The notes: generated from the letters alone by a model not told the origin. Positions 11,421 through 60,604 are shown, numbered from the stretch's first letter. The stretch is 64,000 nucleotides of DNA from Candidatus Goldiibacteriota bacterium (GCA_938034975.1 CALHNI010000005.1:60718-124717); one strand, 5' to 3'. Program-made: numbers and translations.

Positions 11421-11696
11421 AAACGGGTGAATATAAATAATATATAATAAATAAAAATTTATTAAATAAAAATAATAAAAAAATCCTGAAAAATGTATTA
11501 GCGTTTTTCAGGGGAAAAGAGAAAATATAAAAAAAAGGTTTATAAACAAATAAGAATTTTAAGATTGTCCTTGTTTTTAAAATTAAAAAACAGGTGAATT
11601 AAAGTAATGTACTATAAAAATAAAAAATTATTAAACAAAAAAAACAAAAATATTTTATATTCCCGTAAAAACGCATTTTCTAACGCGTTTTTACGG
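11421..11696 (+). repeat. intergenic composite repeat, copy F1 (D'-A-spacer-D-B), forward orientation
   Basis: Contains palindrome A 11485-11512 (cctgaaaaatgtattagcgtttttcagg), module D 11586-11662 (caggtgaattaaagtaatgtactataaaaataaaaaattattaaac...) and palindrome B 11663-11696 (ccgtaaaaacgcattttctaacgcgtttttacgg). The same modules recur at at least 9 other intergenic sites. Confidence 0.85.
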
Positions 11697-11709
11697 AGAA
11701 TTTAAATAT

Positions 11710-11738
11710 TTGACTTTTGTATTTTTTTATTTTAAAAT
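11710..11738 (+). promoter_or_regulatory. sigma70-type promoter: TTGACT-N17-TAAAAT, 13 nt downstream of palindrome B
   Basis: -35 TTGACT at 11710-11715, 17-nt spacer, -10 TAAAAT at 11733-11738. Gene start is at 11769. Confidence 0.55.
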
Positions 11739-11768
11739 TATAGATATACCAGGATATAAGGACGGAAA

Positions 11769-12206
11769 ATGGGTATTAATAGTATAAAAATAAAATTTAT
11801 TTTTTTAATTTTTATCTTTATTTCCTGTTCAGAAAATAAAAGATTAAAATATGAATTTGAAAATTACTTATACGGTGAATGGAAAGGTGGCGGCGAACAT
11901 GTGTTTTTTTCCAAAAATCATATTAAATATGATTTATATAAAAAAAATTTATGGTCAATAAGTAAATGGCGTATAATTAAAATAAATAAAAAAAGGAATT
12001 TGATCTATATTAATTTTTATGATATAAAACTTACTGAGGATGCAATAAATTTAAGTAAAAAATACGGGTTACCGATAGAAGGTATTTTAAAGCCTGTTAA
12101 CATTATTTATATTTTTGATGAAAAAAAACAAAAAATAAAAATATTCAAGGGTGGAAATTCTCCTGAAAATATTTTGAAAAAAATAAGTGAAAAACAAAAA
12201 CCTTAA
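11769..12206 (+). CDS. hypothetical lipoprotein
   Basis: 145 aa; signal peptide ending in FISC (lipobox-like); Lys-rich. Confidence 0.5.
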   Translation: MGINSIKIKFIFLIFIFISCSENKRLKYEFENYLYGEWKGGGEHVFFSKNHIKYDLYKKNLWSISKWRIIKINKKRNLIYINFYDIKLTEDAINLSKKYGLPIEGILKPVNIIYIFDEKKQKIKIFKGGNSPENILKKISEKQKP

Positions 12207-12223
12207 AAAAGGGAGGTATTAAA

Positions 12224-12640
12224 ATGAATGATTTTGGGATGGCTTTAGCAATTTCATGGAAAATTATTGAATCTTCGCTTTTATCTTTAATTGTCGCTGG
12301 TAGTATTTATTTGTGTATTATTTATTTTTTTGAAAAAAAGGATGAAGAAGGCAGAAAAAATGAAAAGATGCGCATAGAATTTGAAAGAAAAATTGCTAAT
12401 TTTACAAAAAATCTGATTTTGCCGCTTGCATTTTTAATTTTTGTTGGGTTGTATGGTAAAACACCAGTAATAGGGAAGATGATGTTAATATTAACAGCAG
12501 GTTCAATCTCTGCATCTAATCTTGCTGTTTTACTGAAAAAAGTTTTTGGACTTGAAAAAGAAGGAGAAACATTCTGGATACTATTTATCATTTGTTATTG
12601 TTTAATAATGTATATTTTAATAGGGGAAATTATTAAATAG
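12224..12640 (+). CDS. hypothetical membrane protein
   Basis: 138 aa with 3-4 hydrophobic helices. GGGAGG RBS. Confidence 0.45.
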   Translation: MNDFGMALAISWKIIESSLLSLIVAGSIYLCIIYFFEKKDEEGRKNEKMRIEFERKIANFTKNLILPLAFLIFVGLYGKTPVIGKMMLILTAGSISASNLAVLLKKVFGLEKEGETFWILFIICYCLIMYILIGEIIK

Positions 12641-12693
12641 TAAAAAAATATTCCTATAAAAATATAAAGAATAAAAGCAGTAAAAATAAAAAA

Positions 12694-12721
12694 GGCAACC
12701 ATTATTAGGTTGCCTTTTTTT
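12694..12721. terminator. bidirectional Rho-independent terminator (ggcaacc-attatta-ggttgcc flanked by A- and T-runs)
   Basis: 7-bp GC-containing stem 12694-12714 followed by T7 (12715-12721) on + and, after reverse-complementing, a T-run on - as well. Lies between the 3' ends of convergent gene 12224-12640 (+) and tRNA-fMet (-). Confidence 0.6.
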
Positions 12722-12723
12722 AT

Positions 12724-12798
12724 TGGTTGCGGGGGTTGGATTTGAACCAACGACCTCTGGGTTATGAGCCCAACGAGCTACCACTGCTCCACCCCGCG
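12724..12798 (-). tRNA. initiator tRNA-fMet (anticodon CAU), 75 nt with encoded CCA
   Basis: Reverse complement reads CGCGGGGTGGAGCAGTGGTAGCTCGTTGGGCTCATAACCCAGAGGTCGTTGGTTCAAATCCAACCCCCGCAACCA. It has the C1xA72 mismatch, three consecutive G-C pairs in the anticodon stem (GGG/CCC) and a CAU anticodon, all initiator hallmarks. Confidence 0.9.
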
Positions 12799-12869
12799 AT
12801 TTATTTAATTTGCACTCTGCTATTTTTAATAATTAAGAACCATATATAATATTATTATGCTGACCTAAC

Positions 12870-13066: not shown

Positions 13067-13103
13067 ATTTATTTAATTCTTTTACATCTTTTAATGAACC
13101 ATA

Positions 13104-13192: not shown

Positions 13193-13209
13193 TATTATTT
13201 TGTTTTAAA

Positions 13210-13237: not shown

Positions 13238-13250
13238 GAATGAATAACTT

Positions 13251-13433
13251 CCGTAAAAAAGCATTAGAAAATGCGTTTTTACGGAAAAAAATATTTTTAT
13301 TTTTATAAGTCATTACTTTTATTTACCCGTTTTTTATTTAAAATAAAACGCAAGAGTTTAATTTCTTTAATAATATTTTTTTTGTATGTTTTTCTCATGG
13401 AAATCGCAATCTTTTAATAATGAGATTTTCAGG
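13251..13433 (-). repeat. intergenic composite repeat, copy R1 (A'-D-B), reverse orientation
   Basis: Palindrome B variant 13251-13284 (ccgtaaaaaagcattagaaaatgcgtttttacgg), reverse module D around 13300-13345 (gtcattacttttatttacccgttttttatttaaaat) and reverse A'-like palindrome 13399-13433 (ggaaatcgcaatcttttaataatgagattttcagg). Confidence 0.8.
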
Positions 13434-13497
13434 AACTTGAAATAAAAAAAATTTTATGTAAATATATTTTAAAAAATAAGATAAAGGAGTAATAAAA

Positions 13498-13917: not shown

Positions 13918-13923
13918 AATATT

Positions 13924-15804: not shown

Positions 15805-15832
15805 CAGGTTAACTCCTAAATAAAAAATATGA

Positions 15833-15982
15833 CCGTAAAAAAAGTATTATTAAGAAAGTTAGTTTTTACAGAAAAAAGATATTTTTATTTATCAAGTTTC
15901 TATTTCTATAATGCATTACTTTTATTTACCTCTTTTTTAATTTATTTTCTGAAATCACAATTTTTTTATTGCGATTTTCAGG
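15833..15982 (-). repeat. intergenic composite repeat, copy R2 (A'-D-degenerate B), reverse orientation, between mnmG and rlmN
   Basis: Degenerate B 15833-15871 (ccgtaaaaaaagtattattaagaaagttagtttttacag), reverse module D 15903-15945 (atgcattacttttatttacctcttttttaattta) and A'-like palindrome 15949-15982 (ctgaaatcacaatttttttattgcgattttcagg). Confidence 0.75.
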
Positions 15983-15984
15983 TA

Positions 15985-15993
15985 TGATATAAT
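15985..15993 (+). promoter_or_regulatory. extended -10 promoter element TGaTATAAT for rlmN
   Basis: TG at 15985-86 and TATAAT at 15988-15993, immediately after the A' palindrome. rlmN starts at 16033. Confidence 0.45.
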
Positions 15994-16032
15994 AAAATTA
16001 TATTATAATTTATAAAAAATAAAAGGAAAAAT

Positions 16033-30688: not shown

Positions 30689-31429
30689 ATGGATGAAAAA
30701 ATAAAAAGGTTAATTGAATTGATAGAATTAAGTGATAATATAGCAGCTTTGACAGGGGCCGGGATTAGCACTTTGTCAGGCATTCCTGATTTCAGGGGTG
30801 GCTATAATCCAATATGGGATAAATTCCCGCAGGAAAAAATTTTTGATATAGATTATTTTAAAAAAGATCCGTCCTTATTTTATGATTTTTTCAGAGAAAT
30901 ATCAAAAAAGAATTATGAGCCAAATATTTCTCATAAGTTTTTAAAATTTTTAGAAGATAAAGGGAAATTAAAAGGCATAATAACACAAAATATAGATGGT
31001 TTGCATCAGAAAACAGGGTCAAAGGCTGTATATGAACTGCATGGCAGCATTTATAAAAATCATTGTATGAAATGTAAAAAAAAGATAACATATGATGCGT
31101 TTTTAAATAAAGTAAAAGATGAAAGAGTTCCATTATGTGAATGTGGTGGAGTAATAAGACCTGATATTGTTTTTTTCGGGGAACTTTTGCCGGATTATGA
31201 TTTAAAAATGGCTTTTTCATTGGCGCAAAATACTGATTTACTTTTAATTGCCGGCACATCTCTTGTTGTTCAACCCGCTTCGTATATTCCAACATACACA
31301 CTAAAAAATGGAGGAAAAGTTGTTCTTATTAACAGAGGCGATACTTATATAAATGATAGAGCAGTACTAATTTTTACCGATATTAAGAAAACATTTGATT
31401 TTCTGGCGCAATACTATAAAATAACCTGA
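30689..31429 (+). CDS. cobB: NAD-dependent protein deacylase (Sir2/CobB sirtuin)
   Basis: GAGISTLSGIPDFRG, QNIDGLH, Zn ribbon CMKC...CECGG, IRPDIVFFGE; 246 aa. Confidence 0.8.
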   Translation: MDEKIKRLIELIELSDNIAALTGAGISTLSGIPDFRGGYNPIWDKFPQEKIFDIDYFKKDPSLFYDFFREISKKNYEPNISHKFLKFLEDKGKLKGIITQNIDGLHQKTGSKAVYELHGSIYKNHCMKCKKKITYDAFLNKVKDERVPLCECGGVIRPDIVFFGELLPDYDLKMAFSLAQNTDLLLIAGTSLVVQPASYIPTYTLKNGGKVVLINRGDTYINDRAVLIFTDIKKTFDFLAQYYKIT

Positions 31430-31605
31430 AAATCGCATTATTAGAAGATTGCGATTTTCAGAAGAAAAAAATATATGAAAAAATATATTATTAAAAAAAA
31501 ATAAAATATTTAAAACAATACTTGTTATTTATTTTAAATAAAAACAGATAAATAAAAGTTATAAAAATAAAAATTTATTAAATAAAAAAATAAAAAAATT
31601 TAGAA
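31425..31605 (+). repeat. intergenic composite repeat, copy F2 (A'-C-D, no B palindrome)
   Basis: A' palindrome 31425-31460 (cctgaaaatcgcattattagaagattgcgattttcag), which overlaps the cobB stop codon. Module C 31494-31540 (aaaaaataaaatatttaaaacaatacttgttatttattttaaat) and module D 31547-31605. Confidence 0.75.
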
Positions 31606-32161: not shown

Positions 32162-32657
32162 AATTATGAAAATATTGCTATTCCCAGATGAAAAATTACG
32201 TTTAAAATCAAAAAAAGTAGAAAGAATAAATTATGGTATTATCAGATTTGCAGAAAGTTTAAAAGATTTTTTATATAGCAATAAAGGCTGTGTCGGTATT
32301 GCAGCGCCTCAGGTTGGGCATTTTGAAAAAATTATTATTGTTGATGTGACAGGGCATAAAAAAACAACAGAGTGCCATAATTTGATTATAATGTTAAATC
32401 CGGAAATAATTGAAAGTTCAGGCGAAAGTATAAATAGAGAAGGTTGTTTAAGTGTTCCTGATTATACGGGAAATGTGGAAAGAAATTATTATGTGAAAAT
32501 AAAGTATATTAACTTAAACGGTGATGAAAAAATACTTACAACAACAGGTTTTGAAGCAGTTGTTTTACAACATGAAATTGACCATCTTGATGGAATTTTA
32601 TTTATAGACAGAATAACAAATTTAAAAAGAGATCTTTTTAAAAGGAAAGTATATTAA
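32142..32657 (+). CDS. def: peptide deformylase
   Basis: Motif 1 GVGIAAPQVG, motif 2 EGCLSVP, motif 3 HEIDHLDG; 171 aa. Confidence 0.85.
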   Translation: MIRRFYKIMKILLFPDEKLRLKSKKVERINYGIIRFAESLKDFLYSNKGCVGIAAPQVGHFEKIIIVDVTGHKKTTECHNLIIMLNPEIIESSGESINREGCLSVPDYTGNVERNYYVKIKYINLNGDEKILTTTGFEAVVLQHEIDHLDGILFIDRITNLKRDLFKRKVY

Positions 32658-32659
32658 TG

Positions 32660-32830
32660 AAACCAAAAAATCGTAATAGAAAATAGCTGTTTAAAGTAGA
32701 AAAACACACAAAAAAATATTATTAAAAAAAGGAGATAAAAGTAATGCATTATAAAAATAAAAAATTTATAAATCAAAATATTTTGTTTTTTATCAAAAAT
32801 GCGTTTTCTAATTGGTTTTTAATGACCAAA
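32660..32830 (+). repeat. degenerate composite-repeat copy F3, whose SD+ATG and B-like module form the 5' end of the CPBP protease ORF
   Basis: The sequence ggagataaaagtaATGcattataaaaataaaaaatttataaatcaaaatattttgttttttatcaaaaatgcgttttctaattggtttttaatg parallels module D + B (aggtgaataaaagtaATGcactataaaaataaaaa...ccgtaaaaacgcattttctaacgcgtttttacgg). Confidence 0.55.
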
Positions 32831-33394: not shown

Positions 33395-33432
33395 AAATGC
33401 ATTTTAAAGTGAGTTTTTTACAGTTGTGAAAC

Positions 33433-33646
33433 CCGGAAATCGTATTAGAAAAATACGATTTTCAGAAGAAAAAACACAAAAAGTATATTATTTAAAAAAA
33501 TAAAATATTTAAAACAACACTTATCCTTTATTTTAAAAAACAGATGAATAAAAGTAATGCGTCATAAAAATAAAAAATTATTAAATAAAAATAATAAAAA
33601 TATTTTGTTTTTCCGTAAAAACGCATTTTCTAATGCGTTTTTACGG
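33433..33646 (+). repeat. intergenic composite repeat, copy F4 (A'-C-D-B), forward orientation
   Basis: A' 33433-33465 (cccggaaatcgtattagaaaaatacgattttcag), C 33494-33537, D 33538-33612 (cagatgaataaaagtaatgcgtcataaaaataaaaaattattaaat...) and B 33613-33646 (ccgtaaaaacgcattttctaatgcgtttttacgg). Confidence 0.85.
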
Positions 33647-33660
33647 GTGAAAGATTTATC

Positions 33661-33793: not shown

Positions 33794-34966
33794 ATGGCGG
33801 ATGTAATGTCTGAAATTGAAGAATTGAAAAAAAAATTATCACAAAATCCTGACTCTCTCATTTTTGTTCCTTTGGCTGATGCATATCGCAGGGCAGGTAT
33901 GCTTGATGAGGCAATAGAGGTATGCAAAAAAGGACTTGAAAAACATCAAAATTATACATCTGCCCGGGTTGTTTTAGGCAGAATTTATTCTGAAAAGAAT
34001 ATGCTGGATGATGCGATTTCTGAATTTAAAAAAGTAGAAGCAGTTGATGTTGATAATATAATGGTTCATTCAATGTTAGGTAATATATATTTAAAAAAAA
34101 AAAGATATGCTGAAGCAATTGAACAGTTTCAAAGAGTTCTTTCATTAAATCCAGAGGATCTGGAAACACAGGAGAAATTAAAAGAAGCACTTGCTGCAAA
34201 ACAGGAACCGGCTAAACCAGAATCACAACCAGTTGAAAAACCAAAAGTTGAAGAAAAATCAAATCAGGATCCTAATGAAGAATTACAAAAAAGTTTAAAA
34301 GTAGCTGAAATATATACAAAAAAAGAAGAGTTTGATAAAGCAATAGAAATATATAATGAAATTTTATCAAAGGATCCTGAAAATATTTCTGTGCAGCAAA
34401 AATTAAGAGAGGTTTATAATTTCCAGGAGAAAAAGCTGGAAAAAATAAAACAAAAAACTTCTCAGGTGAGTAAGAACGAAAATGATAAAATAACCACAGA
34501 AGATATACTTGTTGTAATGAAAGATGCTGTTAAAGAAACAGAAAAGGAAGTAAATAAAGAATCTGAAAAAATTGAGAAAACAGAATCAGGTGTTCTTTTT
34601 GATAGCCAAAAGGCAAAAGCAATAGAAAATATTTTAAAGGACTTAACCAATACAGACGGAATGGTGGGTGGAATTTTTTTGCAAAGAGATGGAAAGATTG
34701 TTGCAAGTGTTTTACCGCCTGATATAGATTCTTCTGAAATTGGTAAGGATATTGCACAGATAGTGGATAAAACAGAAAAATCAGTTCTTAATATGAAGCA
34801 AGGTAAATTAAACCATGCAATTATAGCATCAGAGTCCGGACAACTTTTATTTACAGAAATAAGTAATGGAGTTTTATTCATGATAGGAAATGAAAAGATA
34901 AATATGGGCAAAATGAGTTATGTTTTAAAAGATGTAGTTGCAAAAATAAAAGCACTTTTTAAATAG
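33794..34966 (+). CDS. TPR-repeat protein with a C-terminal Roadblock/LC7 (MglB-like) domain
   Basis: N-terminal TPRs (..A.AY...GM.DEAIE....), a Glu/Lys-rich linker, and a C-terminal ~110 aa GMVGGIFLQRDGKIVAS..P........IAQIV......LNMKQGKLNHAIIASESGQLLFTEISNGVLFMIG typical of Roadblock/LC7. Confidence 0.5.
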   Translation: MADVMSEIEELKKKLSQNPDSLIFVPLADAYRRAGMLDEAIEVCKKGLEKHQNYTSARVVLGRIYSEKNMLDDAISEFKKVEAVDVDNIMVHSMLGNIYLKKKRYAEAIEQFQRVLSLNPEDLETQEKLKEALAAKQEPAKPESQPVEKPKVEEKSNQDPNEELQKSLKVAEIYTKKEEFDKAIEIYNEILSKDPENISVQQKLREVYNFQEKKLEKIKQKTSQVSKNENDKITTEDILVVMKDAVKETEKEVNKESEKIEKTESGVLFDSQKAKAIENILKDLTNTDGMVGGIFLQRDGKIVASVLPPDIDSSEIGKDIAQIVDKTEKSVLNMKQGKLNHAIIASESGQLLFTEISNGVLFMIGNEKINMGKMSYVLKDVVAKIKALFK

Positions 34967-40975: not shown

Positions 40976-40996
40976 TTTTTATCACAATTTAATTTT

Positions 40997-41207
40997 AAAA
41001 TTGCATTATTAGGAGACTGCGATTTTCATGAGAAAAAACAAAAATAATATATTATTTAAAAAAATGAAATATTTAAAACAACACTTGATCTTTATTTTAA
41101 ATAAAAACATGGTGAATAAAAGTAATGCAATATTAAAAATAAAAATTTATTAAATAAAAATATTTTGTTTTCCGTAATAAAAAGCTTTTTTAAATGCGTT
41201 TTTATGG
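40997..41207 (+). repeat. intergenic composite repeat, copy F5 (degenerate A'-C-D-degenerate B)
   Basis: A'-like 40997-41030 (aaaattgcattattaggagactgcgattttcatgag), C 41053-41100 (aaaaaaatgaaatatttaaaacaacacttgatctttattttaaat), D 41107-41165 (ggtgaataaaagtaatgcaatattaaaaataaaaatttattaaat) and B-like 41171-41207 (tccgtaataaaaagcttttttaaatgcgtttttatgg). Confidence 0.75.
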
Positions 41208-41220
41208 ATTTAAAAAAGTC

Positions 41221-44335: not shown

Positions 44336-47300
44336 ATGAAAATTGAAAAAAAAGAGATAGTTTTAAACTTTGAAATAGTTATAAAAGAACAGGATGGCCA
44401 TTTTATAGGTGAATGCATTGAATTGCCAGGACTTATTGTTAGCGGAGCAAATAAAAATGAGGTTATAAAAAATATTAAAGCGGCAATACCACTTTATTTA
44501 AAATATGTGCCAAAAGAGTCCTTTATACCTGTTTATGAAAATTCAATGACTCCTATAATATATGATTTTGAAGAATTCAATGGTTTTTTATATGCAGCAT
44601 CAAGCAAAGATGTGGTTTTAAAAACCCCCACCGGTGATGTTGGTTCATGGGAAAATATAAACATAACAAATATATTTTCGCCTTATTTTAATCCGCCTGT
44701 GGGAAAAATAAGGGATTTTACAACAGAAGATCTTGGTGATTATACGCCTCAGATATACTGTCTTAAATTTTTTAGTGACCTTGGAACACCAAAACTTTAC
44801 TGCGGAACAAATGCCAATGGCGGGATTTATGAAACGCTTGATGGTAAAAAATGGAGCTTATCATTTAACAGTGGTGAAGCAAGAGTGCATTGCCTTGAAG
44901 TTTTCAAAGGGAAACTTTTTGCTGGCACATCAACAGAAGGTAAAATATACAGTTATAATGGTACAAATTGGACAATTTCAAATGCAACAACTGAACTTGC
45001 TATTGTCTCTTTCGGGCTTTTCAGGGATTATCTTTATGCTGGCACTTACCCGAACGGCATAATATTCAGGACAGCAGATGGTATAAACTGGCAGAAAGTA
45101 TTTGATACAAATCAGAGTTTTGTAAATAGTTTTTGTGTTTTTAAAAACAGGTTATATGCTGCTACATCAAAAGCATCCGGTGCCCTTGTTTTTATGACAG
45201 AGGATGGAACAAACTGGGTTGAAAATTTTTTTTCTGAAAAGGATCCTAATTTTTTTAAATTTGCTGTTTTTGCAAATGCTCTTTATCTTGGGACAGGCGA
45301 TAATGGAAGAGTATATAAAACTTTAGACGGTAAAAAATGGGAACTTGCATTCCAGACAGATGAAGAAGATATAAGAGCCATAACAGTTTTTAATGGTTAT
45401 CTATATTTTGGCTCATCACCCAAAGGCAGAATATTTAAAACAATTGAAAGCAATGTGCCGCCACCAAAAGCGTATGATATTGAGATAAGCGAAGTGACGT
45501 CCCACAGCGCAGTTATAACATGGAAAACAGATAGGGAAGCAAACACTATAATAGAATATGGTTTGGATAAAAATTATGGTAATAATATTATAAATGAGAC
45601 AAAAACTGTAAATCATAAAATTACTTTGAATAATTTAAAAGCATTAACAACCTATCATTTTAGAATACTTACTTTTTCTGATATGGGAAGTTTTTCAGGT
45701 ATACTAGAAGATTATAGTTTTACAACCAGTGCGGCAGTTACGCCTGTTATTTCATCAAAGACGCATAGTGACCAGAATAAATGGTATTCTTCAATGGAAT
45801 GTGAACTAAACTGGGGCATACATCCTGAGGTAAAAAATTATTACTATTTATTTGATAAAAATCCTGAAACGGTTCCTGATATTTCAAAGTGTAATGTAAC
45901 GGCAAAAGAAAGCACTATTATAAAATTGCCGGAAGATGGAATATGGTATTTTCATTTACTTATTGAAGATAAAGCAGGAAATATAAGCACATCTGTTTCC
46001 CATTTTACAATAAAGATTGATACTTCGGCTTTGCCTCCTGATGTTTTTTCACCCACACACCCTGATAATACTAAATGGTATAATAACAGCAACGTTGTTT
46101 TAAAATGGAATCCACCCGATGATCTTTCAGGGATTGAAGGATATTATTTTATGATTGATGACTTACCTGGAACATTGGTAAATGAAAAATCTGGCAGGTT
46201 TACGTCTGATACTCAAATTTCAATAAAAATTCATGATGATGGAGTAAAATATTTTCATATTATATCAAAAGATAAGGCAGGTAATATAGGAACAAAGGCA
46301 ACACATTTCAGGATAAACATTGATACGCATTCTTTGCCACCTATAATAAGTTCTAAAACTCATCCTGATACAGAATCATGGTATAATGAAAGAGAGGCAG
46401 AAATTCATTTTGCAAAACCCCATGATTTATCAGGAATTGAAGGATTTTATTATTATGTGGATAATAATAAAACACCGAATGAAAATGTTGACTGGTCTTT
46501 CATTGAATCAGGAGATATAAAAATTAAAGTTAATCAGGATGGGATATGGTATGTTCATGCAAAATCAAAGGATTTGGCAGGAAATATATCAAAAGAAATA
46601 TCAAGTTTTAAATTAAAGATAGATACCCAGGCGTTACCACCTAACATATCTTCCTTAACACATCCTGATCCTAATAAATGGTATAATATTAAACGTGCCC
46701 AGTTTAAAATATATCCTTCTGATGATTTATCTGGCATAGAAGGTTATTATTATTTAATTGATACAAAAGAAAAAACAATTCCTGATACAACATCAGTTTG
46801 GCTTGATAAAGACACAATTTTTACGCCTGATTTAAAAGATGGCGAATGGTATTTACATATCATAACAAAAGATAAAGCAGGGAATGTTGGGATTTTGGCT
46901 TCTCATTTTAAATTTAATATTGATACTACAGCCAAGCCACCCAAAGTTTTTTCAAAAACACACCCGAACCAGGAGGAATGGTATAATAATCCAAATCCGG
47001 AATTACACTGGGAAACCCCTGAGGACCTTTCAGGCATAGAAGGTTATTATTATATTGTTGATAATAAACAAAATACAATACCAACAAAAGAAAACGGTGA
47101 ATGGATAAAGACAAATCAGGTTGTTCTTTCACAAATGGAAGATGGAATTTTTTATTTTCATATTGTTTCAAAAGATTATGCCGGTAATATAGGTTTTGAA
47201 GCAGAACATTTTAAAATAAAAATAGATACAAAAGTTGAATCTCCAAAAGTTATGTCATTGACGCATCCTGATGAAAACAAATGGTATAATAGCCAGATTG

Positions 47301-49873
47301 TAAAATTGTCATGGTCAGTTCCGCATGATTTGTCAAAAATAAGAAATTTTTATTATTTACTTTCCCAGGAAAAACAATTAAAGATAAATCCTGCTCTTGC
47401 AACAAAGACAGAAAAAAGAGAAATTGATTTTAATCTGGCAGAAGAAGGTATTTATTATTTTCATATAATAGGTGAGGATAACGCTGGTAATATAGGCGAT
47501 GAACCGGCTATATTTACGATTAAAATAGATTTAAAAGCCGAGCCGCCTGAGGTAATATCAACAACGCATCCCAATCCGGAAAAATTTTATTCAAATGTAA
47601 ATCCTGTTTTTGTTATAGAAAAAGTAAATGATTTATCTGGTGCTGATGGATTTTATTATATTGTTGATAAACAACCGGAAACAATACCAGATAAAAAAAC
47701 AGGAAGATTTGTAAATGATACAACTATAAAAATTCCGGAAAAATTAGAAGATGGTGAATGGTATTTTCATATTGTTTTAAAAGATAAAGCAGGTAATTTA
47801 GGAACAAAAGCTACACATTATAAATTTAAAATTGAGACAACACCGCCTGAGGCGCACATAAAGGAATTACCACAATTTGTTGCATCCGATACTTTTGAAG
47901 TTAAATGGACAGGTTCTGATAAAGAATCTGGAATAAATTGTTTTACCATAGAATACAAAGAAGGTGAAAAAGGAAAATGGAAAACCTGGCTTTTGGAAAC
48001 AAAAGCGCAATCAGGAATTTTTAAAGGAGAAGATGGTATTACTTATTATTTCAGAATAAAAGCAAAAGATAATGCGGGAAACTGGTCGGATTTTTTTGAG
48101 GATGAAAAAATAAAAACAACGATAGATATATCACCTCCTTCACCTGTAACCCAGATAGTTGCAAAGCCAATTGCTGGCGGAAAAATTTTACTGGAATGGA
48201 ATAAATCTTTGGATTCAATAAGTGGCCTTGATTTTTACAGGATATACAGGTCAACATCAAGCGGACAACTTGGGATGCAGATAAATAATGATGGTGAAAC
48301 AAAAGAGACGAAGTTTATTGATGAATCAAAAGAACTGGAAGATGGTATTATTTATTACTATACAATAAGAGCAGTGGATAAAATAGGAAATGAAAGGGAA
48401 AGTGGCAATAAGCAGATTTTTGCTATATGTGACAGAATTGCATTACCACCTGTAATTTCATCAATTACACATCCAATACAAGATCAGTGGTATAATCATA
48501 AAAATATAAAATTAACATGGAATACACCGCAAGATGCAACGAGGATAAATGGTTATTATTATATATTTGACCAGCTGTCAACAACTGTGCCTGATGCAAA
48601 AACAGGGAATTGGATTACAGAAAACGAAATAGACATTAACAATGTATCTGATGGGACGTGGTATTTTCATATAATATCAAAAGATGATGCCGGAAATTTA
48701 TCAGAAGAAGCAACTCATTTTAAGATAAATATAGATACAACAAAACCCAAACCACCGGTTGTTTCTTCTATTACACATCAGGATCCAAACCAGTGGTATA
48801 ATAATAATTCACCTTCTTTTTCATGGACAATACCTTCTGACCCGGCAGGAATAGAAGGTTATTATTATATTTTTAATCAGATGAAAAATGTGGTGCCTGA
48901 CATTGCTACATCAAGTTGGACAAAAGGAACAATTGCGTCTTTTGTTGATGTTCCGGACGGGATATGGTATTTTCATATCATTGCAAAGGACACAGCAGGT
49001 AATATTTCTGAAGAAGTTTCCCATTTTCAGATAAATGTTGCAATGTCGCCGCCGCCGCCTTATGTTTTTTCAGCATCACATCCTGACCAGGAAAAGTGGT
49101 ATAGGGAAAGAAATGTAAAGATACAATGGAAACCTGTAAAATATGTAAATGAAATAATAGGGTATTATTATGTTCTTGATAATAATGAAGGAACAATTCC
49201 AACGGTTAAATCAAATAAAACAATGGATACAAATGTGAATTTTCAGGATTTAAAAGATGGAATTTACTATTTTCATATAATATCGGTTGATAAAGAAGGT
49301 GTAATTGGAAGGACCGCGGCTCATTATAAAATAAAAATCAAGACAAAAATAACTTTAAAAGGAGTCATAACACAATCTAATGGAATTATGCCTTTGCCTG
49401 GTGCAACGGTTGAGGTGATGAAAGAAGATGGCACAACGCTTGGGGTTTCAATTTCAGATAAAGAAGGTAATTATCAAATAGAAAATTTATCCGTTGGGAA
49501 AGTAAAGATAAAAGTTCTTGCCAAAAATCTTCCGCCACAGATGATTTATGATATAGAATTAACCGAGGACCAGTCAGAAAGAATATTAAATATATCTTCT
49601 GAAATATTTGCAATCTATGAACCATCAACAGAAAAAATAATTTTTAATTATTATATACCTGAAAACGGATTGGTTACTATAAAAATTTATACCGAAAGTG
49701 GTAAAATACTTCATACCATAGAAGAAAAAAAGACAGGTAAAATATACAATAATTCTTTTTGGAATGTTAAAGATATAGAAGATGGAATATATCTTTACCA
49801 GATAACTTCAAAAGGTGATGCAACAGGAAAATTAACCAGATACGCTATAAGGAAAATAAAAAAAGGAAAATAA
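44336..49873 (+). CDS. giant multi-domain protein: HicB-like N-terminal domain + BNR/Ycf48-like beta-propeller + FN3 + ten ~100-aa tandem repeat modules + CarboxypepD_reg-like domain + C-terminal T9SS/FlgD-Ig-like sorting-type beta-sandwich
   Basis: 1845 aa. aa 1-60 match the HicB/UPF0150 pattern (FEIVIKEQDGHFIGECIELPGLIVSGANKNEVIKNIKAAIPLYL). Propeller repeats (LYAGT..G.IY.T.DG..W). FN3 (VTSHSAVITWKTDREANTIIEYGLD). Ten repeats of THPD..KWYN...WN.P.DLSGIEGYYY..D......P..............DG.WYFH....DKAGN.G....HF.I.ID. The C-terminus LVTIKIYTESGKILHTIEE...WNVKDIEDGIYLYQITSKGD resembles type-A CTD/FlgD-Ig. Confidence 0.6.
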   Translation: MKIEKKEIVLNFEIVIKEQDGHFIGECIELPGLIVSGANKNEVIKNIKAAIPLYLKYVPKESFIPVYENSMTPIIYDFEEFNGFLYAASSKDVVLKTPTGDVGSWENINITNIFSPYFNPPVGKIRDFTTEDLGDYTPQIYCLKFFSDLGTPKLYCGTNANGGIYETLDGKKWSLSFNSGEARVHCLEVFKGKLFAGTSTEGKIYSYNGTNWTISNATTELAIVSFGLFRDYLYAGTYPNGIIFRTADGINWQKVFDTNQSFVNSFCVFKNRLYAATSKASGALVFMTEDGTNWVENFFSEKDPNFFKFAVFANALYLGTGDNGRVYKTLDGKKWELAFQTDEEDIRAITVFNGYLYFGSSPKGRIFKTIESNVPPPKAYDIEISEVTSHSAVITWKTDREANTIIEYGLDKNYGNNIINETKTVNHKITLNNLKALTTYHFRILTFSDMGSFSGILEDYSFTTSAAVTPVISSKTHSDQNKWYSSMECELNWGIHPEVKNYYYLFDKNPETVPDISKCNVTAKESTIIKLPEDGIWYFHLLIEDKAGNISTSVSHFTIKIDTSALPPDVFSPTHPDNTKWYNNSNVVLKWNPPDDLSGIEGYYFMIDDLPGTLVNEKSGRFTSDTQISIKIHDDGVKYFHIISKDKAGNIGTKATHFRINIDTHSLPPIISSKTHPDTESWYNEREAEIHFAKPHDLSGIEGFYYYVDNNKTPNENVDWSFIESGDIKIKVNQDGIWYVHAKSKDLAGNISKEISSFKLKIDTQALPPNISSLTHPDPNKWYNIKRAQFKIYPSDDLSGIEGYYYLIDTKEKTIPDTTSVWLDKDTIFTPDLKDGEWYLHIITKDKAGNVGILASHFKFNIDTTAKPPKVFSKTHPNQEEWYNNPNPELHWETPEDLSGIEGYYYIVDNKQNTIPTKENGEWIKTNQVVLSQMEDGIFYFHIVSKDYAGNIGFEAEHFKIKIDTKVESPKVMSLTHPDENKWYNSQIVKLSWSVPHDLSKIRNFYYLLSQEKQLKINPALATKTEKREIDFNLAEEGIYYFHIIGEDNAGNIGDEPAIFTIKIDLKAEPPEVISTTHPNPEKFYSNVNPVFVIEKVNDLSGADGFYYIVDKQPETIPDKKTGRFVNDTTIKIPEKLEDGEWYFHIVLKDKAGNLGTKATHYKFKIETTPPEAHIKELPQFVASDTFEVKWTGSDKESGINCFTIEYKEGEKGKWKTWLLETKAQSGIFKGEDGITYYFRIKAKDNAGNWSDFFEDEKIKTTIDISPPSPVTQIVAKPIAGGKILLEWNKSLDSISGLDFYRIYRSTSSGQLGMQINNDGETKETKFIDESKELEDGIIYYYTIRAVDKIGNERESGNKQIFAICDRIALPPVISSITHPIQDQWYNHKNIKLTWNTPQDATRINGYYYIFDQLSTTVPDAKTGNWITENEIDINNVSDGTWYFHIISKDDAGNLSEEATHFKINIDTTKPKPPVVSSITHQDPNQWYNNNSPSFSWTIPSDPAGIEGYYYIFNQMKNVVPDIATSSWTKGTIASFVDVPDGIWYFHIIAKDTAGNISEEVSHFQINVAMSPPPPYVFSASHPDQEKWYRERNVKIQWKPVKYVNEIIGYYYVLDNNEGTIPTVKSNKTMDTNVNFQDLKDGIYYFHIISVDKEGVIGRTAAHYKIKIKTKITLKGVITQSNGIMPLPGATVEVMKEDGTTLGVSISDKEGNYQIENLSVGKVKIKVLAKNLPPQMIYDIELTEDQSERILNISSEIFAIYEPSTEKIIFNYYIPENGLVTIKIYTESGKILHTIEEKKTGKIYNNSFWNVKDIEDGIYLYQITSKGDATGKLTRYAIRKIKKGK

Positions 49874-55360: not shown

Positions 55361-55607
55361 TTTAATTCAACCTGAAAATCATTAGAAGATTGTTATTTTC
55401 AGCAAAAAAACAAAAATAATATAATTATTATTAAAAAATTAAAAAATTAAAAAATTAAAATATTTAAAACAACACTTGTTCTTTATTTAAAATTAAAAAA
55501 AAAAGATGAATAAAACAATGCAGTATAAAAATAAAAATTTATTTAAATAAAAATAATAAAAAAATTTATTTTTTCGTAAAAACGAGTTTTCTAACGCGTT
55601 TTTATGG
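55361..55607 (+). repeat. intergenic composite repeat, copy F6 (A'-C-D-B), forward orientation
   Basis: A' 55361-55392 (cctgaaaatcattagaagattgttattttcag), C 55443-55490 (aaaaaattaaaatatttaaaacaacacttgttctttattt), D 55497-55573 (agatgaataaaacaatgcagtataaaaataaaaatttatttaaat...) and B 55574-55607 (tcgtaaaaacgagttttctaacgcgtttttatgg). Confidence 0.85.
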
Positions 55608-55621
55608 TTCAATAAGGGGCG

Positions 55622-55650
55622 TTGACATATATTTTAAATACATATATAAT
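55622..55650 (+). promoter_or_regulatory. consensus sigma70 promoter TTGACA-N17-TATAAT, 14 nt downstream of palindrome B
   Basis: TTGACA at 55622-27, 17-nt spacer, TATAAT at 55645-50. Gene start is at 55694, with an AAGGT SD. Confidence 0.65.
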
Positions 55651-55693: not shown

Positions 55694-58303
55694 ATGAAGA
55701 AAACATTTCTGGTTCTTATGCTGATAAATTTGTTATTTTCATTGGATTGCAGGAAAAGAATGCCAACTGCACCTGAATATACCCCTGAACCTACCCAGAT
55801 AATAGTTCCAACATATACACAAACAATTACTCCAACATTAATTTTCACAAATACACATACACAAACTTTTACTTTAACTCATACAACAACAAATACTTTT
55901 ACTTACACCGAAACATTTATAATCCCATCAGATACATTTACAGCAACATCTACTTTTTCTGCAACATACTCAGTGACACAAATTTTCATAAATACAGAAA
56001 CATTTACAGAAACTCATACACAATATTTTACCCCGACAGAAACTCCAACTAATAGTTTTACTTTTACAGACACAATGACTTTAACAGAAAGTTTTACTTT
56101 TACAAACACAGAAACGCCAACAATTACATTTTCTTTTACAGAAACTTTTACTTATGGAGCAACTTTTACAGTTACTGAAACTTTAACTCCGTATCATGGA
56201 AGCGCTTTAATTTCGCCAACAACAGTTTATGGAAAAACATCAGGTAATACAATAACAATAACTTATACAAACGGAAATATAAACTGGGCAGAGGCACCGT
56301 CATATGGGACATTAAAAATAAAAATACCGGCTGGCTGGAGTTTACCAAGTTTAGATCCTTTAAACGCAGGGTATTTTAGCGTTGCAGTGGAAAATGGTTC
56401 TTTGTATGGTCAGTGGGTCCAGGGTAATGAAATAATAATTGGTGTTCGTAACCTAAAACCATTTACAGGTAAAATAATAGTTAATTATGGAGACAAAAGT
56501 TTTGGACCAGGTGCTTTTGTTGATGGTAATGGATTTATAGTTATAGTTGTAGAAGTTGATGAAGATGGAAATCAAACCCAGGAGATAGAGCAAAGTCCTC
56601 AGATTTATGTTGTTCCAGCAACACCGACAATAACCCCAACAATAACTCCTATAATGGGAGAAGGAATAATAGAAATTGATCCATACATTTATGTGGATGG
56701 CACAACCGGAAATACAATGCATTTTATTTATACTGCTGGTCCTACGACATGGGCATCAGGAATGCAATATGGGACATTACGTATAACTTTACCACCTGGC
56801 TTTTCTCAACCGAGCACACAAATTACAAATGCAGGTTATTTTTATGTTACTACAACAGGAAATGAATGGATAGGGACTTCAGTAGATGGTCAGGATATGA
56901 TAATAAATGTGAAAGGTTTACCAGCAATAACCGGAAAGATAAATATTTATTATGGTTATAAAGGGTTTGGGAGTCCAGGTGCTTTTATTACAGGAAACGG
57001 AGTTATTGAAATAATGGTAAAGAGTAATCCTTCTGGTGATGAAACTTATAGATTGCATTTACTTCCGACTATTATGATAATACCGCCAACTGGAACTATA
57101 ACGCCGACAATTACAGAAACAAACACTTTTACAATAACACCTACAATAACAGAAACATTTACTATAACTCCTACATTTACCATATCTGATACATTTACAA
57201 TAAGCCCTACATTTACAATATCTGATACAATAACAGAAACAGTAACGCAAACAATTACTCAGACAATTACACCAACTTTAACTTTTACTTTTACCCCAAC
57301 TCCTCACTGGACTTATGTGGGGAATTCTGGATTTTCTGATGGAGCAGGTGAAAATCCATCTATTTTTGTTTACAATGGTATACCTTATGTTGTGTATACA
57401 GATTTAAAAAATGCAGGTAAAGCAACAGTTAAAAAATTTACAGGAATAAATTGGGAAGATGTGGGTTTACATGCATTTACATCAGACATTGCTTATGAAC
57501 CTAGTATATTTGTTTACGCAAATCAACCTTATGTCGCATTCAGAGATTTTGCACACTCTAACAGATTAAGTGTTATGAAATACAATGGTTCTAATTGGGT
57601 TTATATTGGTTCGCCTGGTTTTACAAGTGGTGCTGCTTATAATCCAAAAATATTCATCTATGCAGATAAAATTTATGTTGGATTTAAAGACGGGTCTTTA
57701 AAAGCAAATGTTATGGTTTATGATGGTAACTGGCAATATGTTGGCTCGCCCGGATTTTCAGATGGACAAATTTCTGATTTTTCATTTTATCTTTATTATG
57801 ATGTTCCATATTTTTCATATCAGGATTGGACGCAGAATTTCAAAGCAACAGTTATGCATAACAGTGGAGCCGGCTGGATGGCTATAGGGAATAAAGGATT
57901 TACAAATGGTAAAGTAAATTACACATCTTTATTTGTAGATGACGGAACACCTTATGTCGCTTTTGCAGATGAAAATTTATCTAATAAGCTAAGTTTAATA
58001 AAATATGATGGAGACAACTGGGTTTATTCAGGAGAAGGAATATCAGATGGAGAAGCACAATATGTTTCACTTTTTATTTATAATGGCAAACCATCTGTGG
58101 CGTATAAGGATTCAGCGCATGAAAATAAATTTTCTGTGGTAAAATATAATGGTATTTCCTGGGAATCTTTAGGAATAGGTATATCAGAAGGAGAAGTAAA
58201 TTATATATCATATTTTATATATAATGGTATTCCATATGTTGCATATCAGGATGTAATACATAATAATAAAATATCAGTTATGATGTATGAAGGAAACTAT
58301 TAA
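55694..58303 (+). CDS. secreted Thr-rich repeat protein: signal peptide, Thr/Phe low-complexity linkers, two ~150-aa beta-rich domains, C-terminal 8 x ~45-aa repeats (propeller-like)
   Basis: 869 aa. Signal MKKTFLVLMLINLLFSLDC. Low-complexity PTYTQTITPTLIFTNTHTQTFTLTHTTTNTFTYTETF... and ITETNTFTITPTITETFTITPTFTISDTF... Eight repeats of GFS.G....S.F.Y.G.PYVA..D.....K..V.KY.G..W..(I/V)G. Confidence 0.5.
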   Translation: MKKTFLVLMLINLLFSLDCRKRMPTAPEYTPEPTQIIVPTYTQTITPTLIFTNTHTQTFTLTHTTTNTFTYTETFIIPSDTFTATSTFSATYSVTQIFINTETFTETHTQYFTPTETPTNSFTFTDTMTLTESFTFTNTETPTITFSFTETFTYGATFTVTETLTPYHGSALISPTTVYGKTSGNTITITYTNGNINWAEAPSYGTLKIKIPAGWSLPSLDPLNAGYFSVAVENGSLYGQWVQGNEIIIGVRNLKPFTGKIIVNYGDKSFGPGAFVDGNGFIVIVVEVDEDGNQTQEIEQSPQIYVVPATPTITPTITPIMGEGIIEIDPYIYVDGTTGNTMHFIYTAGPTTWASGMQYGTLRITLPPGFSQPSTQITNAGYFYVTTTGNEWIGTSVDGQDMIINVKGLPAITGKINIYYGYKGFGSPGAFITGNGVIEIMVKSNPSGDETYRLHLLPTIMIIPPTGTITPTITETNTFTITPTITETFTITPTFTISDTFTISPTFTISDTITETVTQTITQTITPTLTFTFTPTPHWTYVGNSGFSDGAGENPSIFVYNGIPYVVYTDLKNAGKATVKKFTGINWEDVGLHAFTSDIAYEPSIFVYANQPYVAFRDFAHSNRLSVMKYNGSNWVYIGSPGFTSGAAYNPKIFIYADKIYVGFKDGSLKANVMVYDGNWQYVGSPGFSDGQISDFSFYLYYDVPYFSYQDWTQNFKATVMHNSGAGWMAIGNKGFTNGKVNYTSLFVDDGTPYVAFADENLSNKLSLIKYDGDNWVYSGEGISDGEAQYVSLFIYNGKPSVAYKDSAHENKFSVVKYNGISWESLGIGISEGEVNYISYFIYNGIPYVAYQDVIHNNKISVMMYEGNY

Positions 58304-58330
58304 ATAGAAATAATAAAAACAGTTTGTTTT

Positions 58331-58578
58331 CCAGTAAAAACGCGATTTCTAATGCGTTTTTAAGGTTAAACCTGAAAAACGCATTAGCGTTTTTCAGGGA
58401 AAAAAAGGAAATATAAAAAAGGTTTATAAACAAATATAATTTTTAAAAGAGAACTTATTTTTAAATTAAAAAACAGGTGAATAAAAGTAATGCACTTTAA
58501 AAATAAAAATTATTAAACAAAAAAGACAAAAATATTTTATATTTCCGTAAAAACGCATTTTCTAATGTGTTTTTACGG
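58331..58578 (+). repeat. intergenic composite repeat, copy F7 (B-A-spacer-D-B), forward orientation
   Basis: B 58331-58365 (ccagtaaaaacgcgatttctaatgcgtttttaagg), A 58371-58398 (cctgaaaaacgcattagcgtttttcagg), a ggtttataaacaaat spacer shared with copies F1/R3, D 58469-58544 and B 58545-58578 (ccgtaaaaacgcattttctaatgtgtttttacgg). Confidence 0.85.
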
Positions 58579-58591
58579 TTAAATATTTCAA

Positions 58592-58620
58592 TTTACATTT
58601 TTAATTTTTTTATTTAAAAT
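58592..58620 (+). promoter_or_regulatory. sigma70 promoter TTTACA-N17-TAAAAT, 13 nt downstream of palindrome B
   Basis: -35 at 58592-97 and -10 at 58615-20. NSS transporter start is at 58650, with a GGAGG SD. Confidence 0.55.
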
Positions 58621-58649
58621 AATGAAAATTATAATTTCCGGAGGCATAG

Positions 58650-60218
58650 ATGAGTATTCATAAAAATATAAATAAGAAACGTCAGACCTGGGGAACTAAA
58701 ATCGGTATAATTTTAGCTGTTGCTGGTTCTGCAATTGGACTAGGAAATTTTTTAAGATTTCCGGTTCAGGCAGTATTAAATGGCGGAGGAGCATTTTTAA
58801 TACCTTATTTTGTTGCACTTATTTTGGTTGGAATACCGCTTATGTGGATTGAATGGACAGTTGGAAGATATGGTGGCGGATTTGGTCACGGAACAGCACC
58901 TGGTATTTTCCATTCAATGGCTCAAAAAACAAGATTTATAAAATATTTTGGCGTTATAGGAATTTTTGGTCCTGTAATTATTTTTATTTATTATGTTTAT
59001 ATTGAATCCTGGTTATTAGGTTATACATTTTTTTCTTTGACAGAAAAATATTTAAGTGCAGTAAAGGCAGGAGAAGTTAAGGATTTTTTTTATGGTTATG
59101 TGAATATTACGAACAATAAATATTTTAATGGGATAGGGATTGCGTATATTTTCTTTTTAATTACTTTTGCTTTGAATTTTATAATAATTTATTTTGGTAT
59201 AAAAGCAGGTATTGAAAGGGTTGCAAAAATTGCTATGCCTTTACTTTTAATACTTGGCATTTTTTTAATGATAAGAGTGTTAACACTTGGAACGCCGGAT
59301 CAGGCAAAACCTGATTGGAATGTAAATAACGGGTTTGGTTTTTTGTGGAATCCGGATTTTTCAAAATTAGGGGACCCCAAGGTCTGGCTTTCAGCAGTGG
59401 GACAGATTCTTTTTACATTAAGTGTTGGTATTGGGGTTATTTTGACCTATGCAAGTTATTTAAAAAAAGAAGACGATGTTGTATTATCAGGATTGACATC
59501 CGCAACAACAAATGAATTTGCCGAAATTATTCTTGGAGGAAGCATTGTCATTCCTGTTGCCTTTGCTTTTTTCGGTCCGCAACAGATAGTTGAAATAACC
59601 AAATCAGGAACTTTTGGACTTGGCTTGATGACAATGCCTCTTATATTCGGAAAAATCCCATTGGGTGAAATTTTTGCTCTTTTTTGGTTTTTACTTTTGT
59701 TTCTTGCCGGCATTACATCATCTATTTCTCTCTTACAACCGGCAATTGCTTTTTGTGAAGATGAATTTAATTTAAGCAGGAAAAAAACAGTTTTAATAGT
59801 TGGTTTAATAACATTTATTCTTTGCCAACCAGCCATTTTTTTTATAAAACAGGGAGCAATAGATGAACTTGATTTTTGGGCTGCTAATTTTTGTCTTGTT
59901 GTTTTTGCCCTTATAGAAACAATTTTATTTGCCTGGATATTTGGTATTGATAAAGCATGGGAGGAAATACATCATGGTGCCCAGATGAAGGTTCCTGAAT
60001 TTTATAAGTTTATAATAAAATATATTACCCCGTTATTTTTAATTGCCATACTTGTTTTCTGGTTTGTAAAGGAATGGTGGCAAATGATAATAATGAAAAA
60101 TGTTCCACCAGAAAATCAGGGTGTAATAATTGGAATAAGGATAATGCTCGTTTTATTTTTTATAAGTCTGGTTTTTTTAGTAAAAATCGCATGGGATAAA
60201 AGAAAAAAAGGAGCATAA
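58650..60218 (+). CDS. sodium-dependent transporter of the NSS (neurotransmitter:sodium symporter, SLC6-like) family
   Basis: 522 aa with 11-12 TM helices. N-terminal W.TK.GIILAVAGSAIGLGNFLRFP motif typical of bacterial NSS/SNF transporters. Confidence 0.8.
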   Translation: MSIHKNINKKRQTWGTKIGIILAVAGSAIGLGNFLRFPVQAVLNGGGAFLIPYFVALILVGIPLMWIEWTVGRYGGGFGHGTAPGIFHSMAQKTRFIKYFGVIGIFGPVIIFIYYVYIESWLLGYTFFSLTEKYLSAVKAGEVKDFFYGYVNITNNKYFNGIGIAYIFFLITFALNFIIIYFGIKAGIERVAKIAMPLLLILGIFLMIRVLTLGTPDQAKPDWNVNNGFGFLWNPDFSKLGDPKVWLSAVGQILFTLSVGIGVILTYASYLKKEDDVVLSGLTSATTNEFAEIILGGSIVIPVAFAFFGPQQIVEITKSGTFGLGLMTMPLIFGKIPLGEIFALFWFLLLFLAGITSSISLLQPAIAFCEDEFNLSRKKTVLIVGLITFILCQPAIFFIKQGAIDELDFWAANFCLVVFALIETILFAWIFGIDKAWEEIHHGAQMKVPEFYKFIIKYITPLFLIAILVFWFVKEWWQMIIMKNVPPENQGVIIGIRIMLVLFFISLVFLVKIAWDKRKKGA

Positions 60219-60224
60219 ATATTT

Positions 60225-60323
60225 ATGAAAATAAGCGGTTATATAATGTTAATACTTGCATGGGGAACAATTTTAAGTTTGGGAGTTTATTGTTTTTACA
60301 GGATCTTTAAAGAACACAAATAA
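60225..60323 (+). CDS. putative 32-aa single-TM small protein immediately downstream of the NSS transporter (possible MetS-like small subunit)
   Basis: ATG 6 nt after the transporter stop, AGGAGC SD-like sequence upstream; MKISGYIMLILAWGTILSLGVYCFYRIFKEHK. Not in the ORF track (below its length cut-off). Confidence 0.3.
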   Translation: MKISGYIMLILAWGTILSLGVYCFYRIFKEHK

Positions 60324-60421
60324 AATATCAAAGTAAAGCTTTTTAATTTTTTTATATATTCCTCATCTATTGACATAAAATGTAAAATGATTCACCATTT
60401 AAGAAAATATGTTTTTAGTAA

Positions 60422-60604
60422 CCTTAAAAACGCATTAGAAAATGCGTTTTTAAGGTATTTAATAATTTTTATTTTTAAAGTGCATTACTTTTATTCACCA
60501 GTTTTTTAATTTAAAAATAAGTTCTCTTTTAAAAATTATATTTTTTTATAAACCTTTTTTATATTTCCTTTTTTCCCCTGAAAAACGCTAATGCGTTTTT
60601 TAAG
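60422..60604 (-). repeat. intergenic composite repeat, copy R3 (A-spacer-D-B), reverse orientation
   Basis: B 60422-60455 (ccttaaaaacgcattagaaaatgcgtttttaagg), reverse D 60470-60520 (aaagtgcattacttttattcaccagttttttaatttaaaaat), ggtttataaa spacer in reverse, and A 60577-60604 (cctgaaaaacgctaatgcgtttttaag). Near-exact reverse complement of 58371-58578. Confidence 0.85.

Follow-up and report, generated by a model that had tools for sequence, protein, structure and literature searches.

A 64,000-nt stretch of DNA from Candidatus Goldiibacteriota bacterium (GCA_938034975.1 CALHNI010000005.1:60718-124717; hereafter the window, with positions counted from its first letter) carries a family of short repeats, which we consider very probably to be a non-coding MITE (miniature inverted-repeat transposable element) that has recently multiplied here and is biased to one position beside predicted promoters. 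The window has a GC content of 23-34%, and its genes, almost all on the plus strand, are of housekeeping type. Copies are named below by their first position in the window, and contigs from other assemblies by L numbers.

Detection of the repeat family

The original prediction, made from the sequence of the window, had listed ten sites of a composite repeat, and all ten are real. A profile built from the core of the aligned copies and run on the window with nhmmer matches exactly these sites (E-values of 2e-49 to 5e-22) and nothing comparable elsewhere in the window, apart from two additional partial copies (Table 1); repeat finding and multiple alignment of the window also recover the family. 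Three of the sites need to be redrawn, however. Those listed at 11421-11696 and 58331-58578 are genuine repeats but not single copies, each consisting of an older remnant followed by a full copy, and the one listed at 31425-31605 belongs to the family but lacks palindrome B.

Two concerns raised with the prediction can be dismissed. The similarity is not that of generic AT-rich DNA, given that the palindrome arm motif CCKKAAAAWCGC occurs 26 times in the window (with at most one mismatch) against 1.3 occurrences expected by chance, all except three of them falling within copies. Nor is the family an assembly artefact, because other samples, assembled independently (L001, L029, L030), contain the same copies. 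Short-read contigs typically stop at copies of the element, as a high-copy repeat would cause, and contigs ending in or beside copies are seen in several samples (L001, L002, L008, L015, L029, L030). Small open reading frames (ORFs) created by the element get annotated as genes (P0121, P0183, P0184). The family makes up 3% of the window, a density that had been called extreme; it is high, yet not beyond what has been described for elements of the Correia, REP and BOX/RUP kinds. Our census of ~15 copies covers the window and contigs L003, L004, L014 and L028; of the genome of this organism, ~130 kb was covered.

Inverted hairpin ends and subfamilies

Copies range in length from 150 to 237 bp, and their limits coincide exactly with the outer arms of two palindromes. 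The left end is formed by palindrome A (CCTGAAAAACGC-ATTA-GCGTTTTTCAGG) or A' (CCTGAAAATCGC-ATTATTAGAAGATT-GCGATTTTCAGG), of which A is the version with a shortened loop, and the right end by palindrome B (CCGTAAAAACGCATT-TTCT-AATGCGTTTTTACGG). The ends are true terminal inverted repeats, because A' and the reverse complement of B match over the whole hairpin, loop included (ATTAGAAGAT and ATTAGAAAAT). These repeats span at least 36 nt, each with a perfect hairpin of 12-15 bp inside it, and the subterminal GGAAATATAAAA/TTTTATATTTCC segments likewise pair. The ends of the element read CCTGAAAA/CCGTAAAA, also given as CCTGAAAAWCGC...GCGWTTTTMMGG, and begin with CCTG/CCGT. As single-stranded DNA the hairpins have predicted folding energies of -11.7 to -16.1 kcal/mol (z-scores of -7.7 to -9.9), and whole elements are predicted to fold back with z-scores of -8.2 and -6.5. 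Palindromy is preserved by paired changes, with T:A in place of G:C in copy 60422 and A:T exchanged for T:A between A and A'. In L004 (2401-2434) palindrome B has its loop in reverse (ATTAGAAAAT in place of ATTTTCTAAT) with the remaining element in the same orientation, which suggests an inversion across the 12-15 bp arms.

The two predicted subtypes are real. Subfamily 1 (A, ggtttataaacaaat, D, B) comprises copies 11485, 58371, 60422 and that of L003, which are 87-95% identical, and the copy of L004 shares this layout at a lower identity (78-82%). Subfamily 2 (A', C, D, B) comprises copies 13251, 15833, 31425, 33432, 40993 and 55371, at 71-86% identity. Subfamily 1 is the young group and subfamily 2 the older. 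Copies 58371 and 60422 are, as had been noticed, close to exact reverse complements of each other, with 95-97% identity in inverted orientation. Internal ORFs do not exceed 35 codons and are not conserved across copies.

Evidence for transposition

Of the ten copies with two ends, six are immediately flanked by direct duplications of 5-6 bp (5 bp in four, 6 bp in two), compared with one match in 90 when the left and right flanks of different copies are paired as a control. Target-site duplications had been proposed as a check on the prediction, as had empty sites in related genomes, and four empty orthologous sites were found in relatives that keep the same gene order (MnmG 86-88% and the ACT-domain protein 75-77% identical). 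The rlmN|mnmG spacer measures 72-79 bp in L005, L006 and L007 versus 228 bp here, and the alignment reveals a clean insertion, CCTG...ACGG, with TCATA duplicated. The tRNA-Leu|yjbQ site is empty in L007, the SIR2|ACT spacer is 3 nt in relatives versus 186 nt here, and the genes for deformylase and CPBP protease overlap by ATGA in relatives. At the site of copy 40993, synteny with L023 ends. Among named organisms, those with the nearest relatives of MnmG and of the ACT-domain protein are metagenome-assembled genomes (MAGs) of Candidatus Goldbacteria/Goldiibacteriota. A profile search of 84 kb of relatives' DNA found no copy versus ten in the 64-kb window; the family thus expanded in this lineage, after the split from the relatives with an 86-88% identical MnmG. 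The inverted ends, the duplications and the empty sites thus uphold the earlier reading as a mobile MITE with related inverted ends, but not its likening to Correia elements, as the duplication is of 5 bp and not TA.

A transposase encoded elsewhere in the genome, plausibly of the DDE type, would bind the ends of the element and act in trans; its cuts would be staggered by 5 bp (sometimes 6) in an AT-rich target, and insertion would leave the flanking duplication. Pfam annotation of 20 window proteins returned housekeeping functions throughout and no transposase, and no solo terminal arms marking a full-length insertion sequence (IS) occur in the window. The only transposase seen is a fragmented one of the IS3 family (HTH_Tnp_1, HTH_21 and rve pieces) at 7382-8265 of L014, at most ~1 kb from two copies, and its surroundings have no similarity to the element ends.

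Position relative to predicted promoters

A sigma-70-type promoter is predicted outside one end of nine of the 15 copies, with its -35 hexamer starting 13-15 nt from the element end (Table 1). Eight of these flanks were found by automated detection (end coordinates of L004 and L014 corrected by 1-2 nt) and the ninth, that of copy 40993, by eye. Both perfect-consensus promoters of the window belong to the nine, and a second, independent scanner gives these sites the highest rank within each region, with 12/12 and 10/12 matches. The promoter lies outside the element, because the 13-15 nt gap holds the duplicated target and has no sequence common across sites. The tRNA-Leu promoter is conserved in L007 and the promoter block at 33661 in L023, both of them relatives without the element. 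The duplicated target sits 8-10 nt upstream of the -35 hexamer, roughly at -45 to -50 from the transcription start. Under an even spread, a distance class this tight has a rough binomial probability of 1e-5 to 1e-7. The host carries a standard rpoD gene.

Several points weigh against a recently multiplied, promoter-biased MITE. Four of the ten two-ended copies have no exact duplication, neither the window nor the other loci examined contain an autonomous element or a transposase with matching ends, and the sample is of only ~15 copies. The promoters are predictions, weak promoter-like matches occur at chance frequency in this AT-rich DNA, and six of the 15 copies (15833, 31425, 32663, L014 9888, L028, L003) have no adjacent promoter. 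Moreover, the fixed spacing could arise by selection after insertion.

The distances from the predicted promoters suggest promoter-proximal targeting or selection. We tentatively put forward that the transposase chooses its target via the promoter, inserting 8-10 bp upstream of the sigma-70 -35 hexamer; the choice would be directed by DNA bent by bound RNA polymerase, by an AT-rich UP element, or by direct recognition through contact with the holoenzyme or the -35 sequence. If true, this would parallel in bacteria the way in which yeast Ty1/Ty3 or Tf1 integration is tethered to promoters, and at many promoters the ends containing hairpins would systematically come to lie at about -49 to -85.

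Selection after random insertion is a real, if less than probable, alternative source of the 13-15 nt spacing. Insertions elsewhere in short spacers may have been harmful and lost, or the outward end (GCGTTTTT[A/C][C/A]GG, with a T-tract at about -53 to -57) may act as an UP element or factor-binding site, so that well-spaced copies were retained. Spacers are indeed short, as at site 40993, where only ~26 nt separated the stop codon from the -35 hexamer until the element arrived; the ends being inverted repeats, an identical terminal sequence faces the promoter from either end; and copies at gene junctions also survive, so insertion is not strictly promoter-specific. Selection fits less well with nine of 15 copies lying in a class 3 nt wide when the upstream space available for insertion ranges from ~26 to ~144 nt, with the lack of a shared sequence between element end and -35 hexamer, and with one 5-bp target having been hit twice independently: TTAAA at 58366-58370 abuts an older remnant and then served as the target of the young copy 58371. 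This twice-used target and the narrow distance class modestly favor targeting over selection.

Alternative identities of the element

Could the repeats be a host regulatory cassette, or a small-protein or leader-peptide gene family duplicated with its promoter context, rather than a transposon? Module D contains a Shine-Dalgarno (SD)-like AGGTGA followed after 9 nt by an ATG and then, in some copies, by an ORF of ~30 codons (MxYKNKKLLNK..RKNAFSNAFLR) that runs through palindrome B. Few positions are better conserved than the SD-like motif and the ATG, the frame is open through B in copies 11485, 13251, 33432, 32663 and L003, and in copy 32663 it is joined in frame to a real gene. Five window copies, however, have the ORF cut to 3-16 codons, the two youngest (8 codons) among them, and the ATG is absent from copy 31425. 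When 5.8 billion and 1.84 billion proteins were searched with profiles of module D plus palindrome B, taken as a protein or as the N-terminus of a parental transposase, no protein family was returned, the only matches being four tiny ORFs derived from the element. Duplications and empty sites show transposition, and the promoters lie outside the element, which they predate, so that we regard a peptide gene or host cassette as very unlikely. The module-D ORF may be a relic of the gene start of the parental element.

A second alternative is that the repeats are REP/BIME or IS200/IS605-type elements (REPIN, PATE), moved as single-stranded hairpins by an HUH (Y1) transposase such as RAYT. With those of the REP/BIME/REPIN type they share short GC-containing palindromes in an AT-rich setting, a modular mosaic make-up and high density, and the stable hairpin at each end and the palindromy kept by paired changes would also fit. 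Insertion by HUH enzymes (IS200/IS605, RAYT), however, produces no duplication and needs a fixed target tetra- or pentanucleotide, and REP sequences carry a GTAG head, whereas variable 5-6 bp duplications flank the copies here and no GTAG head is present. Palindrome-associated elements of the IS200/IS605 type, which have subterminal hairpins and insert 3' of a short fixed target, likewise lack inverted ends, unlike the mutual inverted repeats of at least 36 nt seen here, and no Y1 transposase is found among the annotated genes of the examined sequence. There is accordingly little chance that the family moves by an HUH mechanism.

Duplication upstream of many genes of a structured small RNA or cis-regulatory leader RNA is also highly improbable. 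The predicted folds of whole elements are very stable and end B points toward the following gene in most window copies, but any element with long inverted ends would show such stability, and three copies present end A, not B, to the promoter. For most copies the downstream gene has its predicted promoter past the element, which would leave the element outside the transcript, and the hairpins have no T tail. The prediction had suggested a search of Rfam, and no family matches the element there: at gathering thresholds the window yields only three tRNAs, and at permissive E-values the best hit over one copy has an E-value of 0.37, so that none falls below 0.3, and 22 bits against a threshold of 100 bits. 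Palindromes A and B were also considered as intrinsic terminators and rejected, as they lack a T tail and a terminator scanner flags neither. The same scanner does flag a canonical bidirectional intrinsic terminator at 12688-12720 (13-bp stem, A and T tails), between a convergent 138-aa ORF and tRNA-Met. The host thus uses ordinary terminators, unlike palindromes A and B.

Copies and their effects on neighboring genes

Table 1. Copies of the element in the window and on two further contigs with an adjacent predicted promoter. Profile match, boundaries of the nhmmer match; promoter, element end facing it and distance from that end to the -35 hexamer, followed by -35 hexamer, spacer (nt) and -10 hexamer.
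Copy	Position	Strand	Profile match	Type	Flanking duplication	Predicted promoter	Context
11420	11420..11473	+	11420-11473 (weak)	remnant of older copy (module D and A-rich tail)			next copy begins where its palindrome B would be
11485	11485..11696	+	11483-11697	full, subfamily 1 (young; A, ggtttataaacaaat, D, B)	flanks AAAAT/AGAAT, 4/5 identical	end B, 13 nt; TTGACT (11710), 17, TAAAAT	upstream of ORF at 11769
13251	13251..13433	-	13250-13439	full, subfamily 2	AACTT, 13246-13250 and 13434-13438	end B, 13 nt; perfect TTGACA-16-TATAAT (13237-13210, minus strand)	adjoins tRNA-Leu promoter
15833	15833..15982	-	15832-16011	short (150 bp), subfamily 2	TATGA, 15828-15832 and 15983-15987		divergent rlmN/mnmG spacer
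31425	31425..31603	+	31422-31590	truncated (A', C, incomplete D; lacks palindrome B)			between SIR2-like gene and ACT-domain gene
32663	32663..32824	+	32655-32826	degenerate			at stop/start overlap (ATGA) of deformylase and CPBP-protease genes
33432	33432..33646	+	33422-33649	full, subfamily 2 (A', C, D, B)	GTGAA(A), 33426-33431 and 33647-33652	end B, 14 nt; TTGACA (33661), 15, GATAAT, TG before it	TPR/Roadblock-domain gene at 33794
40993	40993..41207	+	40988-41209	full, subfamily 2	ATTTA(A), 40987-40992 and 41208-41213	end B, 14 nt; weak TAGCAA (41222, by eye), 17, TATAAT	2-oxoacid:ferredoxin oxidoreductase operon (41285)
55371	55371..55607	+	55365-55610	full, subfamily 2	TTCAA, 55366-55370 and 55608-55612	end B, 14 nt; perfect TTGACA-17-TATAAT (55622-55650)	869-aa ORF
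58302	58302..58365	+	58302-58367	remnant of older copy (D tail and palindrome B)			stop codon of upstream 869-aa ORF at its start
58371	58371..58578	+	58366-58580	full, subfamily 1 (young)	TTAAA, 58366-58370 and 58579-58583	end B, 13 nt; TTTACA-17-TAAAAT (58592-58620)	SNF-family transporter gene
60422	60422..60604	-	60420-60609	full, subfamily 1 (young)	none recognisable	end A, 13 nt; TTGCCA-17-TATTAT (60618-60646)	upstream of BFN-domain gene
L004						end A, 15 nt; TTGACA-17-TATAAT	downstream gene not identified
L014 8834						end A, 13 nt; TTGAAT-17-TATAAT	M48 peptidase gene

The copies had been described as strictly intergenic, which does not hold in three places. Copy 31425 has taken the place of the final codons in the SIR2-like gene (30689-31429), whose stop codon TGA comes from the first bases of the element (ccTGA) and whose C-terminal residues differ from those of relatives; the palindrome B of this copy is lost immediately ahead of the ACT-domain gene's ribosome-binding site. 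Copy 32663 separates the deformylase and CPBP-protease genes, for which the ATGA overlap is seen in L023 (10985-11130) and L025 (10990-11135). Module D of this copy has the best SD sequence of any copy (AAGGAG), with an ATG at 32744 and a frame open through B into the protease gene, and may thereby give the protease a 26-codon N-terminal extension; the protease ORF is 216 aa long with the extension versus 187-190 aa in relatives, and the original-type start codon is still there at 32823. Third, the 869-aa ORF (55694-58303), which has no Pfam match, terminates within the older remnant 58302-58365, at its very start, so that its last codons and stop may be derived from the element.

Copy 15833 (150 bp, two hairpins) is probably in the 5' untranslated region (UTR) of mnmG, because it lies between the predicted promoter and the ribosome-binding site of that gene. 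Side effects of insertion include the donation of stop codons, of a ribosome-binding site with a start codon, and of 5'-UTR hairpins to neighboring genes.

Distribution beyond the window

Further copies come from the same sampling project, three on L014 and one on L028, to which the element-derived ORFs from the protein searches had led. A scan of GTDB genomes with the palindrome-B pattern found only two contigs, L003 and L004 (JACVJA010000310.1 and JACVJA010000020.1), with one copy each and 25% GC. Both are deposited in the hot-spring MAG Candidatus Calidifonticultor daggyaiensis (Actinomycetota), and are probably mis-binned and from a relative of the window organism. In the databases scanned, these two hot-spring contigs are the only occurrence of the family outside the contigs of this organism. 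In JGI metagenomes the palindrome-B pattern had no match and the module-D pattern had seven, all of them chance AT-rich matches, none matching the profile. Patterns for B and A had no match in IMG/VR, nor did a blastn search with two copies against PLSDB plasmids and INPHARED phages.

Comparison with known mobile elements

Bacterial MITEs are likewise small, multicopy and mostly intergenic, have inverted ends and duplications but no transposase, and show nested insertions, lineage-specific bursts and occasional donation of signals to neighboring genes (PMC10969869). The section on insertion-site preference in that review describes nothing like a fixed spacing from the -35 hexamer (PMC10969869). 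The present family differs in that its terminal repeats are themselves perfect hairpins of 12-15 bp, in that the duplication is of 5 bp whereas TA is the commoner type, and in that most copies lie at one fixed distance from a -35 hexamer. We regard the element as a new family of an established type, the MITE, whose unexpected feature is its position beside predicted promoters.

Tn3-family terminal repeats typically read GGGG...TAAG, unlike the CCTG/CCGT ends found here; moreover, the adjacent and nested copies argue against target immunity of the Tn3 type, and no Tn3-family transposase was seen in the ~130 kb examined. Yet the TIMEs, inverted-repeat miniature elements derived from Tn3, resemble the family in their 5-bp AT-rich duplications, terminal repeats of ~38-40 bp and size of ~200-260 bp (PMC4133298). 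The inverted copies 58371 and 60422, which flank the SNF transporter gene, also recall a TIME-COMP, although the pair has no common duplication. A composite transposon spanning 58371-60604 was accordingly rejected, as the outer flanks differ (TTAAA and TCAGA).

The Correia elements of Neisseria duplicate TA, have 26-bp ends and carry their own outward promoters, whereas here the duplications are variable and of 5-6 bp and the promoters are outside and older. Correia (NEMIS) elements are nevertheless alike in being high-copy MITEs that lie mostly just upstream of genes and affect promoters and transcripts (PMC10969869). A parallel for insertion at a fixed position beside a functional DNA site is the IS1202 subgroup, which is reported to abut XerCD sites with 5-6 bp duplications (bioRxiv 10.1101/2022.12.17.520857); the neighboring site is there a recombination site and here a sigma-70-type promoter.

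Other features of the window

Two long ORFs of the window are repetitive and probably encode surface proteins: a 1845-aa ORF (44336-49873) has at least 12 tandem repeats of ~300 nt (~100 aa), and the 869-aa ORF has repeats with an 18-nt period and no Pfam domain. Immediately 3' of the SNF-family transporter gene, a hydrophobic ORF of 32 codons (60225-60323; MKISGYIMLILAWGTILSLGVYCFYRIFKEHK) may encode a small membrane protein partner.

Implications

The window thus documents a recently active mobile family in relatives of Candidatus Goldbacteria, a candidate phylum that has hardly been studied, with clear cases of a MITE reshaping genes, namely a donated stop codon, a gene overlap that was split and supplied with a new ribosome-binding site and start, and hairpins placed in the probable 5' UTR of mnmG. 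If the -35 spacing holds genome-wide, the family would offer a simple and testable example of a bacterial transposon whose targeting is directed by promoters, and its copies would naturally mark where promoters lie in an uncultured organism.

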